Assembly (NCBI RefSeq): GCF_002113885.1
Contig: NW_018404943.1
Coordinates: forward strand, 892,363-956,362
DNA length: 64,000 bases
From: Mizuhopecten yessoensis
Taxonomy: Eukaryota
Direction of reading: 5' to 3'
In this document: positions 10,301 to 51,100 of the stretch, piece after piece
Layout of the letters: the number at the start of each line of letters is the position of its first letter
Position numbering within the stretch: position 1 is the first letter of the stretch
The notes under the pieces: generated by a model
The model's input: the letters and a program-made list of their open reading frames with translations, nothing else
Told to the model about the DNA's origin: nothing
Databases searched by the model: none
Translations under genes and position numbers: made by a program

Positions 10301-13300
10301 CCAGTACTTCCTGTCAAACCTATAGCTCCTGTGTTTCCCTGTGGTCCTGTATTCCCAACAACACCTGTAGGTCCTATTGGTCCAGTACTTCCTGTTAATC
10401 CTAAGGCTCCAGTGTTTCCCTGTGGTCCTGTATTACCAACAACACCTGTAGGTCCTATTGGTCCAGTACTTCCTGTCAAACCTATAGCTCCTGTGTTTCC
10501 CTGTGGTCCTGTATTACCAACAACACCTGTAGGTCCTATTGGTCCAGTACTTCCTGTCAAACCTATAGCTCCAGTGTTTCCCTGTGGTCCTGTATTACCA
10601 ACAACACCTGTAGGTCCTATTGGTCCAGTACTTCCTGTCAAACCTATAGCTCCTGTGTTTCCCTGTGGTCCTGTATTACCAACAACACCTGTAGGTCCTA
10701 TTGGTCCAGTACTTCCTGTCAAACCTATAGCTCCAGTGTTTCCCTGTGGTCCTGTATTACCAACAACACCTGTAGGTCCTATTGGTCCAGTACTTCCTGT
10801 CAAACCTATAGCTCCTGTGTTTCCCTGTGGTCCTGTATTACCAACAACACCTGTAGGTCCTATTGGTCCAGTACTTCCTGTCAAACCTATAGCTCCAGTG
10901 TTTCCCTGTGGTCCTGTATTACCAACAACACCTGTAGGTCCTATTGGTCCAGTACTTCCTGTCAAACCTATAGCTCCTGTGTTTCCCTGTGGTCCTGTAT
11001 TACCAACAACACCTGTAGGTCCTATTGGTCCAGTACTTCCTGTCAAACCTATAGCTCCAGTGTTTCCCTGTGGTCCTGTATTACCAACAACACCTGTAGG
11101 TCCTATTGGTCCAGTACTTCCTGTCAAACCTATAGCTCCTGTGTTTCCCTGTGGTCCTGTATTACCAACAACACCTGTAGGTCCTATTGGTCCAGTACTT
11201 CCTGTCAAACCTATAGCTCCTGTGTTTCCCTGTGGTCCTGTATTACCAACAACACCTGTAGGTCCTATTGGTCCAGTACTTCCTGTCAAACCTATAGCTC
11301 CTGTGTTTCCCTGTGGTCCTGTATTACCAACAACACCTGTAGGTCCTATTGGTCCAGTACTTCCTGTCAAACCTATAGCTCCTGTGTTTCCCTGTGGTCC
11401 TGTATTACCAACAACACCTGTAGGTCCTATTGGTCCAGTACTTCCTGTCAAACCTATAGCTCCTGTGTTTCCCTGTGGTCCTGTATTACCAACAACACCT
11501 GTAGGTCCTATTGGTCCAGTACTTCCTGTCAAACCTATAGCTCCTGTGTTTCCCTGTGGTCCTGTATTACCAACAACACCTGTGGGTCCTACTGGTCCAA
11601 TACCTCCGGTCAAACCTATAGCTCCTGTGTTTCCCTGTGGTCCTGTATTACCAACACCACCTGTAGGTCCTATTGGTCCAGTACTTCCTGTTAATCCTAA
11701 GGCTCCTGTGTTTCCCTGTGGTCCTGTATTACCAACAACACCTGTAGGTCCTAGTGGTCCAGTACTTCCTGTCAACCCTATAGCTCCTCTGTTTCCCTGT
11801 GGTCCTGTATTACCAACAACACCTGTAGGTCCTATTGGTCCAGTACTTCCTGTTAATCCTAAGGCTCCTGTGTTTCCCTGTGGTCCTGTATTACCAACAA
11901 CACCTGTGGATCCTGTATTACCAACAACACCTGTAGGTCCTATTGGCCCAGTCCTTCCTGTCAAACCTATAGCTCCTGTGTTTCCCTGTGGTCCTGTATT
12001 CCCAGTAAAACCTGTAGGTCCTATTGGTCCAGTACTTCCTGTCAAACCTATAGCTCCTGTGTTTCCCTGTGGTCCTGTATTCCCAACAACACCTGTTGGT
12101 CCTACTGGTCCAGTACTTCCTGTTAATCCTAAGGCTCCAGTGTTTCCCTGTGGTCCTGTATTACCAACAACACCTGTAGGTCCTATTGGTCCAGTACTTC
12201 CTGTCAAACCTATAGCTCCTGTGTTTCCCTGTTGTCCTGTTTTTCCAGCAACACCTGTGGGTCCTACTGGTCCAGTACTTCCTATTAATCCTAAGGCTCC
12301 AGTGTTTCCCTGTGGCCCAGTACTTCCTGTTAATCCTATGGCTCCAGTATTTCCCTGTGGCCCAGTACTTCCTGTTAAACCTAAGGGTCCTGTTATTCCT
12401 TGTGGCCCAGTACTTCCTGTTAATCCTAAGGCTCCCGTTATTCCTTGTGGACCAGTACTTCCTGTTAATCCTAAGGCTCCCGTTATTCCTTGTGGCCCAG
12501 TACTTCCTGTCAGTCCTGTGGCTCCTGTGTTTCCTTGGGTAATTGTTGGTATTGTCACCTGTGCTGTGGTTACTATCTGTGTTGTGGCTACATGGGGTGT
12601 CGTCACTGGTGTTGTGGTTACCGGTGTTGTCACTTGTGTTGTGGTTACCTGTGTTGTTGTCACCTGTGTTGAGATATTAGGTGCAGTTGTAGGACCAGCA
12701 GTCGTTGTAGGTACAACTACAATAAACAGAAAATAGGAGTAAGACAATGACAATTGGAAAATTTCACAATTGCATATGGTCTGAACAGATGAATCATGAA
12801 AAATTTTACACAGGAAAATTGTCATGTTTGAATTACTGAACTTCAATGTATCCGTTCCTTACATGGTTCTAAATCTGCCTGGACAGAGAAGAAAAAGGGT
12901 TTGATGAAGAATTCTAGCTGTGAGCCCACTGCCAGTGTACCGTCATTAGCATAGGTCAACAGTGTACCGTTGTTTGGTGTGGGAGAGTAGCTAAAGCTCA
13001 TTGGTATATAGGCCACATCTGTGCTCCAGCCTAGGAAAATTCCAGCACCAGTTGTCGGAGCATTGTTGATGACAATCTGAGACAAAGCAGAAATTATGTA
13101 GTGTATACTGTGAAACTTTCACCCTACTCCAGTAAAACTTTCACCCTACTCCAGTTTTCACCCTACTCCAGTAAATCCCTTCACCCCACTCCAGTAAATC
13201 CCTTCACCCTACTCCAGTAAAACTTTCACCCTACTCCAGTAAAACTTTCATCCTACTCCAATAAAACTTTCACCCTACTCCAGCAAAACTTTCACCCTAC

Positions 13301-48133: not shown

Positions 48134-51100
48134 GTAAGTATACATGTGGATAATTACGATTGCTCATCTTCATCATAAATCATGCTTTAAAAATTTAAAA
48201 CTTTCAAGAAACTTGGCATTTTATTAGGTTTTTAATGGGTAAACGCTCTCGTTTTGAAGAATTGATAAATAAAACTAGTTCATTTGTCCTTTTTTAGTGC
48301 AAACCTTCGGCTACGAAACGAAAGATCGAGGGAGTTACTTTGCTCAAACTCCAGATACACTGATGTCAGTATGGGTGAATAGAGACATACCCCTTCCACG
48401 TGGAACGACCGTTACCTCTCTTAATTACTACGTAGAACCCACACTTCCAAATGGAACATACTCTGGACAATTTTATATATGGAAACAGGTTACATCCGTG
48501 AAATACTTATTGGAACTGAAAGAAAATCTTGTCTTTGATACAACAACCTCTGGTATAAAAGAGGTAGGTACCTAATGTTTTAATATTTTGAAGGATCAAT
48601 GAATTGTGTTGAAATGTTCTATTGATGCTTTTCTTGTTCTTTCAAAACTATCGGCAGCACCAGAATAGTTAGGAACAATAATGGTATAAACTAGAGCTGT
48701 ACAATCAAACCTGCCTTCATGACTACCTGTCTATTGCAACCACCTTTGTGACCATGATCTTGCTCCATATAGACGGATCATACACCTCATAACAAGGCAT
48801 TGCCATATCAACAACGTCCAGATTTTGTTTGTTTTTATATATGCCGGTCGAAATTTGAGGGAACATTGTGGTATGGGGTCCATCTGTCGGTCTATAAGCC
48901 CTTTGCTGTCCACACTTAGGTTTTTTGCAAGGTAAAGATAACTTATTTATTACTCCCCCCACTGGGAACCAGGGTGGACCAAGTTTTGCTGTCCGTCCTT
49001 CTATCTTGTTCGGGCTCTTATCTCCTACACTACTTATCACTGGAACTTCATACTTGGGTATGGGTTCACCTTGGTAAGGCATTGTGTATCAAAAGTAGGT
49101 CACTCTGACTTGCTTTTTCACCTTTGACCTGCATCAAAGAAAAGTTGGTCTCGTCTCCTACACCAATTACTGGAACTTCTTGCTTGGCACTTGCATTGAA
49201 GAAGCATACATAGTGTCGCCAGATGCAATAGTAAAATATTACTGGTAAACATACACCAGATTTATTTACAATAGTAGCACTGACACACAGACCCACCGTA
49301 TTCAACAAGGAATAGTAACATTCATATATAGTATTAGTTCCTGCACGAATTTATCTGCATTTCACATTCGGTGGGGGACTATAATTCGCCGAATTGTCTT
49401 GTTAACTTTTGAGGGAACTTGGTATACATGTACATTGTATACAGAATTTTGATTAATTGACGATGGAAATATCTTGCAAGATATATAGATTATTGGCAAA
49501 AACTGGCATTTATTTTCATAATTCCTATGAAAAGACTATTTAAATGTTATAAAGGATACATAAAAAACATTTAAGTTGGTAAAGTACAGTTCGTAGTACA
49601 GAACTGTTGTTTCTCGTTGCATTTCCATATTTTCATGTATTAATTTCGGACACAATAATGCATTCAACGGGTCTTTTCAGCCCCCGAGGAATAGTTTCCT
49701 CGGTATTTAATTGGGAAGTAATTTAGATCCCAACCTAGCATATTTGTGGCATTTCAGAACTATAGAGAAATTTGTACTGTGAGGAAGAAGTGACCCCCCC
49801 CCCCCCAATACCTGCCATGCTGGACATTCAAGAGAAAACATCATGCTGCCAGAATTAGCTTGCGGGTCAGACCCTGCCATGCCATTAGTGACTTGTCTGT
49901 GTCTGCAGGGCATGAAGAGATTAACGCATGTCACCAGCACTAGTCCAGGGTTTAGTCCCACCATCGAAGATCAGTCCCTGGAACACAAAAGAAATATTCT
50001 CGCCCTCATAAGCACATACACAGATAATGTTCATATTTGCTATGAAGCATCCTTGGATTCCCTTTGACCAGGGAATCGGTTGTTTTAAAGAGGAATGGGG
50101 CTCCTGTTTGGGGCAATTTGTTTATCAAGTATTTCAAAAGTACAGTTTTCGTGAACAGCTTTATAAAGCATCTTTAGGAACAGGAAATAAAATGTTGTAT
50201 AAAGTATGAGTATAATGCCCGAAATAACCGAGACAAGTATTTGAAGTATCGCATTTAATAAGAATATATTTACATCTGTGCCTCTTATTTTCCATTTAAC
50301 ATTGCCAGAGGCTTGATAAATAAAAAGACACTTGTTTGATAAGTCAAGTGTGAAAAGGAAACTTGTGCAAGATCATACATGTATTCAGTTCAATTATATT
50401 GATTAAATGTATTTTACATATGACCTATTTATAGATGCATGCATTAAGCAGTACTACAACGATCATAATTTCTTTTGTAGTTTATCTTTCCCGTGCCATT
50501 TACCCTCTGTTATGATGCAAACAGTTACTTGGGCTGGGGCTTCGACCAACAAATTGGACCTATCTCGATTAGTGAAGATTTTGAGGATGTAAACAATACT
50601 TTACTCGCTTACACAGAAGAGGGCCTCGTTGTTGATGAAGAGTACTCTTCTTTCTTTGCTTTGCCATACACCTTTTCCATTGAGTTGATCCTTAATGTTA
50701 CCGGTGGTAAGTATTGCAATTTTAGCTCAACTTGTCCCAAGATCCACCATTTAACCATATGTACAAATTATTTGTAGCAGACCAATGTACTTCTACAACG
50801 ATTGGCTCTTGGGTCAATCTCGCCCCTTCAGACTTGGGCCCACGGACCATAACAATGACTAAAATTGTATGAATTAGGATGTTGTGGAGTCAAAATTGAG
50901 AAATTTCAGCAGTATTTATAGTATTATTGCCATGATTCGTAATATTCCAGTTGGCTATACAGGCCCTCGTGGTCTCTTGTTAGGGACTACACTTGACTAG
51001 ATTATAATCTTGCATATCTTTAATATATTGGAATGATATATGAACAGGTGGTTTCTATTAGGGCTCTGCATTGGGAGAGTAATCGGTCTGCCCATCCACT

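Follow-up and report, generated by a model that had tools for sequence, protein, structure and literature searches.

In Lingula, collagens with EGF domains were reported as a new group of 17 genes, and the products of 4 of these occur in the shell proteome (PMC4595640); a table for the pearl oyster includes seven combinations of collagen with EGF_CA domains (PMC13425148). Membrane-anchored collagens are represented by the MACITs (collagens XIII, XXIII and XXV), which are type II proteins whose N-terminus is cytosolic and which contain a coiled coil; none was found in Lophotrochozoa (PMC4678570). The cuticle collagen of Riftia is stabilised by glycosylated Thr, and annelid cuticle collagens in general combine very long helices with globular domains (PMC11766948), whereas Scl2 carries an N-terminal trimerisation domain (V domain) on a hydroxyproline-free collagen (PMC3391134). 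Here, we analyse a 64,000-nucleotide stretch of the Mizuhopecten yessoensis genome (contig NW_018404943.1, positions 892,363 to 956,362; hereafter, the window), in which two genes, A and B, encode collagens that start with the same domain of 155 residues, which is beta-rich and has no family name. As judged from their predicted exons, A, B and a third gene on another contig, paralog C, represent a membrane-anchored form of the EGF-collagens known from lophotrochozoans, carrying an orphan head.

Local alignment of the spliced domains of A and B yields 39 identities in 148 positions (26%) and a score of 135, compared to a mean of 30.5 and a maximum of 62 among 5,000 shuffles, none of which reached the observed score. 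The similarity is also significant for each exon taken separately (scores of 66 and 85 vs. a shuffle maximum of 51), and the splice phases around and inside the domain (1-0-1), together with the intron positions, are identical in the two genes. Taken together, these comparisons indicate that the similarity between the two domains is homology rather than chance. The original prediction, which was made from the letters of the window alone and proposed alignment with shuffling as a check, had claimed such a shared, nearly Cys-free N-terminal domain with an aligned N-x-T sequon, and this claim holds: all 12 motifs that it quoted were located at the ends of the interval 12863-50706, the domain contains no Cys in A and one in B, and the sequon is present in A and B and also in C. 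Aromatic residues are abundant, with 22-28 per copy. The interval itself is not a single feature and corresponds to the 5' ends of two divergently transcribed (head-to-head) genes, the first exons of which are ~27 kb apart and separated by mostly repetitive DNA.

Five single-exon searches of the genome identified credible matches to the domain at the A, B and C loci only, a number of loci that is to be read as a lower bound. The domain of C is identical to that of A at 61 of 146 positions and to that of B at 44 of 145, and 29 columns are invariant in all three. The common order of the encoded parts is the domain, Gly-X-Thr collagen, EGF repeats (recognised by their Cys pattern), a 4-Cys half-EGF, a transmembrane helix and a short tail; the position of the domain and the exon layout are the same in all three paralogs, and a signal peptide is found at the start of A and B, although it was not located in C. 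Read from the sequence, this architecture of head, collagen rod, EGF repeats and predicted single-pass membrane anchor is almost certain. It places the domain directly after the signal peptide, at the membrane-distal end of the collagen, in agreement with the distal position on the rod that had been proposed, whereas the membrane-anchored EGF-collagen nature of both genes was absent from that proposal.

The rods are long and of unusual composition. In the model of gene A, the rod consists of 394 Gly-X-Y triplets, of which 216 have Thr in the Y position (55%) and none has Pro; the 888 triplets of gene B have Thr in 41% of Y positions, again without Pro, which makes up 1.6% of the gene B collagen overall. 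In paralog C, Thr occupies Y in 22 of the 57 readable triplets. Collagen rises by 0.286 nm per residue, which gives computed rod lengths of ~340 nm for A and ~760 nm for B. A Thr-rich spacer of roughly 50-60 residues separates the head from the helix in A and C, and a linker with Pro and CxxC takes this place in B. Very large single exons hold much of the collagen (3.7 kb in A and 7.1 kb in B). That of gene A is largely made of an 81-bp tandem repeat (window 9050-12322), the copies of which are 95% identical; this high identity suggests a recent expansion of the gene A collagen, whereas the sequence of the gene B exon is diverged.

Comparison with the described systems shows both shared and distinguishing features. 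A, B and C combine collagen with EGF domains and lack COLFI, as do the lophotrochozoan EGF-collagens, and they share collagen and calcium-binding EGF repeats with those of Lingula, for which the text consulted in PMC4595640 mentions neither a membrane anchor nor a Gly-X-Thr composition. Like the MACITs, they are membrane-anchored, but an N-terminal signal peptide and a C-terminal hydrophobic helix were found in place of the type II arrangement, so that the predicted topology is the opposite one. The Thr-dominated Y position is that of Riftia-type cuticle collagen, which also resembles the scallop proteins in its very long helix, globular domain and Thr in stabilising positions; this comparison is by description only, and the text consulted in PMC11766948 does not mention a membrane anchor or EGF repeats for Riftia. 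The bacterial surface collagens Scl2 and BclA, the latter rich in Gly-X-Thr, likewise form a triple helix free of hydroxyproline and have a non-collagenous end that is globular, but A, B and C belong to animals, contain introns and encode EGF repeats and a membrane helix, and we use the bacterial proteins as a working analogy only.

A matching scaffold was found outside the genome. Among the best 120 of 444 matches to the gene B collagen, two share the whole scaffold, namely, P0060, which is Lingula anatina LOC106170605 and is annotated only as uncharacterized, and its near copy P0068. P0060 has a signal-peptide-like start, a rod of 309 triplets in which Thr fills 42% and Pro 2% of Y positions, EGF repeats, a 4-Cys half-EGF just before the hydrophobic helix, as in A, B and C, and a short tail. 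It differs in its rod, to which that of gene B is nearly threefold longer (888 vs. 309 triplets), and in its head, which in both P0060 and P0068 is an IgGFc_binding domain, with the orphan domain absent; two further IgGFc_binding domains follow the collagen, so that P0060 carries three in total. The shared half-EGF and transmembrane end, along with the shared Y-position bias, suggests that A, B and C are kin to the Lingula EGF-collagens. The head looks exchangeable, given that stalk and C-terminal end are the same in the Lingula protein, the tip of which is an IgGFc_binding domain.

Searches for relatives of the domain itself returned little. Pfam scans (at E<=5 and E<=2) of eight sequences at the exon level or containing an exon gave nothing above noise, and the VWC, TSPN/LamG, VWA, COLFI and C4 profiles did not match in the exon-level scans, as had been anticipated for all five families in the original prediction. 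In the PDB sequence search, the best E was 0.79 for exon 2, with no match for exon 3. A profile search of 1.84 billion representatives produced 28 matches, of which two are true single-stretch homologues: P0127 (58% identical to C) and P0130 (42%), each an unnamed gene call of a single exon on a contig of ~1 kb. The remaining 26 add up weak repeats, with no single stretch above 11.3 bits on rescoring; the five examined were Ig-like repeats, RCC1-like repeats and a tick repeat protein. Word-based protein searches with two queries, exon 2 of gene B and the alignment of exon 3, found 0 at E<=1 among 86 and 4,151 candidates, respectively, which is weak evidence. The single locus in a metagenome scan was a small bacterial protein that matched by chance over 9 residues, a viral scan gave 0 of 24 candidates, and the domain was not among the top rescored rows for the best 120 matches to the gene B collagen. 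With only two single-stretch homologues among the 28 representative matches, the domain is either rare or quickly evolving as far as current sequence collections show, from which proteins of this genome or its closest relatives may be missing. In the literature, searched through titles and abstract openings with few subscription journals included, we found no description of the domain or of a type I Gly-X-Thr EGF-collagen.

The two exons of the domain were modelled separately, and both half-domain models are all-beta, in line with the proposed beta-rich character, at low confidence (predicted local distance difference test scores of 62 and 58). Structure searches with these half-domain models found no significant fold match, and the nearest named Atlas clusters were PHR (0.77), Lectin_like (0.76) and DUF4082 (0.75), all below the lead threshold. 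To compare profiles, we used 18 PHR and 21 C1q domains from the same genome and 15 bacterial DUF4082 domains, against a domain profile of five sequences. PHR (PF08005) aligned with the domain over 97 columns with an hhalign probability of 1.7%, a weak match the score of which was reached by 2 of 150 shuffles; when the PHR hidden Markov model (HMM) was run on A, B and C, between 58 and 788 of 1,000 shuffles reached the observed scores. For DUF4082 (PF13313), the hhalign probability was 0.22%, with 71 of 200 shuffles reaching the score, and the HMM result was 2 of 1,000 shuffles for C, 108 of 1,000 for B and no score for A, so that C is the lone standout in nine family-by-paralog tests. As a control, the PHR and DUF4082 profiles matched each other with an hhalign probability of 51%. 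Both families are similar to the domain in size, all-beta character and, by eye, strand motifs, but neither gives a significant profile match, and in this genome PHR sits in BTB-type genes. The genome scan with PHR gave 32 matches, none at A, B or C, and that with DUF4082 gave seven sub-threshold matches, none at these loci and all seven inside PHR-bearing genes. The 32 matches represent an expanded set of PHR genes (on contigs C966, C1380, C3180, C3636, C4057 and others), with BTB/BACK-like sequence upstream in those examined. According to the models, the domain likely folds as a beta-sandwich; we consider the chances evenly balanced that it is a jelly roll of the PHR/DUF4082 type.

The C1q/TNF alternative within the original prediction fared differently. 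For gC1q (PF00386), there was no Pfam match, the hhalign probability against the genome C1q domains was 0.43% over 5 columns, and 437-759 of 1,000 shuffles reached the HMM scores, which for all three paralogs thus lie within the shuffle range; these profiles do not support C1q. For the ten-stranded jelly-roll trimer of gC1q/TNF, the comparison drew on the low-confidence half-domain models. TNF gave no match in the Pfam scan, the sole test applied to it.

With respect to function, we lean slightly towards the beta-sandwich domain being the ligand-binding tip of a membrane-anchored collagen-EGF stalk. The domain would be the outermost module of three predicted single-pass membrane proteins, the chains of which would wind into a triple helix of the lengths computed above, registered from the membrane/EGF end. 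Thr, probably O-glycosylated, would replace hydroxyproline in these helices, in keeping with Thr in 41-55% of Y positions and Pro in none. Three heads would be displayed at the tip of each stalk, held a few hundred nm off the cell surface, and would bind with avidity a ligand that is probably a glycan or a matrix component.

The original prediction had left the role open between trimerisation and ligand binding. Of these, we favour with moderate confidence a binding tip over a folding nucleus, because the Thr-rich spacer parts head and helix in A and C and because the Lingula scaffold carries a different head. Two points weigh against a binding tip: the head of gene B lies close to the helix, beside the CxxC, and in the analogous case of Scl2 an N-terminal trimerisation domain serves a hydroxyproline-free collagen (PMC3391134). 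Both are counted in favour of the best-surviving rival explanation, under which the domain would be mainly an N-terminal cap for trimerisation or registration of an imino-poor helix, comparable to the V domain of Scl2, or would select chains among A, B and C. The domain does precede the helix in all three paralogs, the low Pro content of the gene B collagen makes extra stabilisation plausible, and the head-to-head arrangement of A and B might allow co-regulation. However, the spacer and a Lingula scaffold that does without the orphan domain speak against a cap, and heterotrimers of A and B are disfavoured because rods of 394 and 888 triplets, differing more than twofold, could be in register at one end at most, a point that we also count for the binding tip. 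Furthermore, in X1 and X10, the two runs compared for both genes, B is well covered whereas A is not. We consider the cap or chain-selection role unlikely.

Still less probable is the possibility that the proteins are shed as structural fibres of shell, periostracum or cuticle, with the head joining fibre ends to one another, to chitin or to mineral. The presence of 4 of the 17 Lingula EGF-collagens in the shell proteome (PMC4595640), as well as the very long helices and globular domains of annelid cuticle collagens and the glycosylated Thr of Riftia (PMC11766948), would be compatible with such fibres, but the transmembrane exon is kept in all three paralogs. Finally, the domain is beta-rich and of similar size, and C1q matches in the genome number at least 104; even so, the reading that it belongs, after extreme divergence, to a family already known to accompany collagen (gC1q/TNF or laminin-G/TSPN) is very improbable given the Pfam, hhalign and HMM results above and the fact that gC1q is normally C-terminal to collagen.

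The exons of A and B and the locus of C are listed in Table 1. Five splice joints of gene B are present in two assembled runs (X1 and X10, the RNA status of which is guessed), in X10 on one contig of 10,123 nt, and two of the joints also occur in 4-5 raw RNA reads. Among the records listed as containing gene B exon 2, none is registered as RNA, and the splicing evidence comes from aligning the runs to the gene. For gene A, no joints were listed and there was almost no cover in four of four runs, which had been chosen by gene B; because of this choice, its splicing is rated as predicted only. The signal exon of gene A is the sole candidate between 18470 and 48000 that combines an ATG, a hydrophobic stretch and a phase-1 donor.

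Table 1. Exons of genes A and B and locus of paralog C. Positions are those of the window unless a genome locus is given.
Feature	Position	Strand	Basis or remark
Gene A, signal peptide (first coding exon, predicted)	20508..20583	-	in frame with next exon
Gene A, domain exon 1 (87 aa, P0001)	18198..18460	-	AG/GT ends
Gene A, domain exon 2 (71 aa, P0002)	12863..13076	-	alignment to B
Gene A, single exon with Thr-rich spacer (~60 aa) and collagen rod	9000..12716	-	
Gene A, predicted 24-bp exon closing the collagen	7909..7932	-	AG/GT, frame kept
Gene A, exon with two EGF-like repeats	7039..7284	-	EGF pattern read from sequence
Gene A, truncated 4-Cys EGF exon	4808..4954	-	
Gene A, terminal exon with stop codon, encoding a predicted transmembrane helix and a short cytoplasmic tail	3995..4347	-	
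Gene B, signal-peptide exon	48067..48133	+	splicing seen in X1 and X10 and in 5 raw X22 reads
Gene B, domain exon 1 (88 aa, P0003)	48298..48563	+	splicing in RNA data
Gene B, domain exon 2 (75 aa, P0004)	50481..50706	+	splicing in RNA data
Gene B, short exon with Pro run and CxxC directly before first Gly-X-Y	52481..52540	+	
Gene B, collagen exon interrupted by three short stretches	53603..54355	+	
Gene B, 7.1-kb collagen exon, ~790 uninterrupted triplets	55922..63022	+	5' joint in RNA data
Gene B, last collagen exon inside the window	63403..63537	+	predicted
Gene B, EGF pairs, half-EGF and transmembrane exons, beyond the window	G000:C1616:957972-964937		predicted
Paralog C: domain, Thr run, Gly-X-Thr collagen (partly in gaps), EGF pairs, half-EGF, transmembrane exon	G000:C1165:2569541-2597323		

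After the C-terminal exons of gene B, a second copy of this block (G000:C1616:966364-969665) contains, in order, a half-EGF, two EGF pairs, a half-EGF and a transmembrane exon, and may serve as an alternative C-terminus or be a duplicate that lacks a head. Exons resembling a furin-type proprotein convertase by eye lie on the reverse strand (G000:C1616:1008351-1027634), ~40 kb downstream of gene B. Paralog C carries five EGF-pair exons that are nearly identical, along with two half-EGF exons (G000:C1165:2590725-2597323), which shows recent exon duplication. Between A and B, an open frame of 697 residues (window 37551-39644, forward strand) resembles by eye a reverse transcriptase of the long interspersed nuclear element (LINE) type. 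Long minisatellite arrays (window 21296-29893, 31951-33573, 13113-13935 and 16389-17949, with units of 51, 55/165, 26, 22 and 40 bp) occupy the intergenic region and introns of gene A and are the source of many spurious open reading frames.

EGF-collagens have already been described, and the gain from these observations is accordingly moderate. A broader proposal, which we put forward tentatively as a possibility on the unlikely side, is that lophotrochozoans have type I membrane collagens with hydroxyproline-free Gly-X-Thr stalks of up to ~0.8 micrometre, an EGF/transmembrane base and swappable heads, as an animal counterpart to the stalk and head of bacterial Scl and BclA, with the head studied here forming a new, extracellular branch of the PHR/DUF4082 jelly roll that binds glycans. 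A, B and C, together with the Lingula protein, suggest a separate class of membrane collagens that is oriented opposite to the type II MACITs. Gene B, with its 888 triplets, 1.6% Pro and no Pro in the Y position, would be a natural test of whether glycosylated Thr replaces hydroxyproline in a sub-micrometre helix, and the structure and ligand of the head would define a new collagen-associated module.

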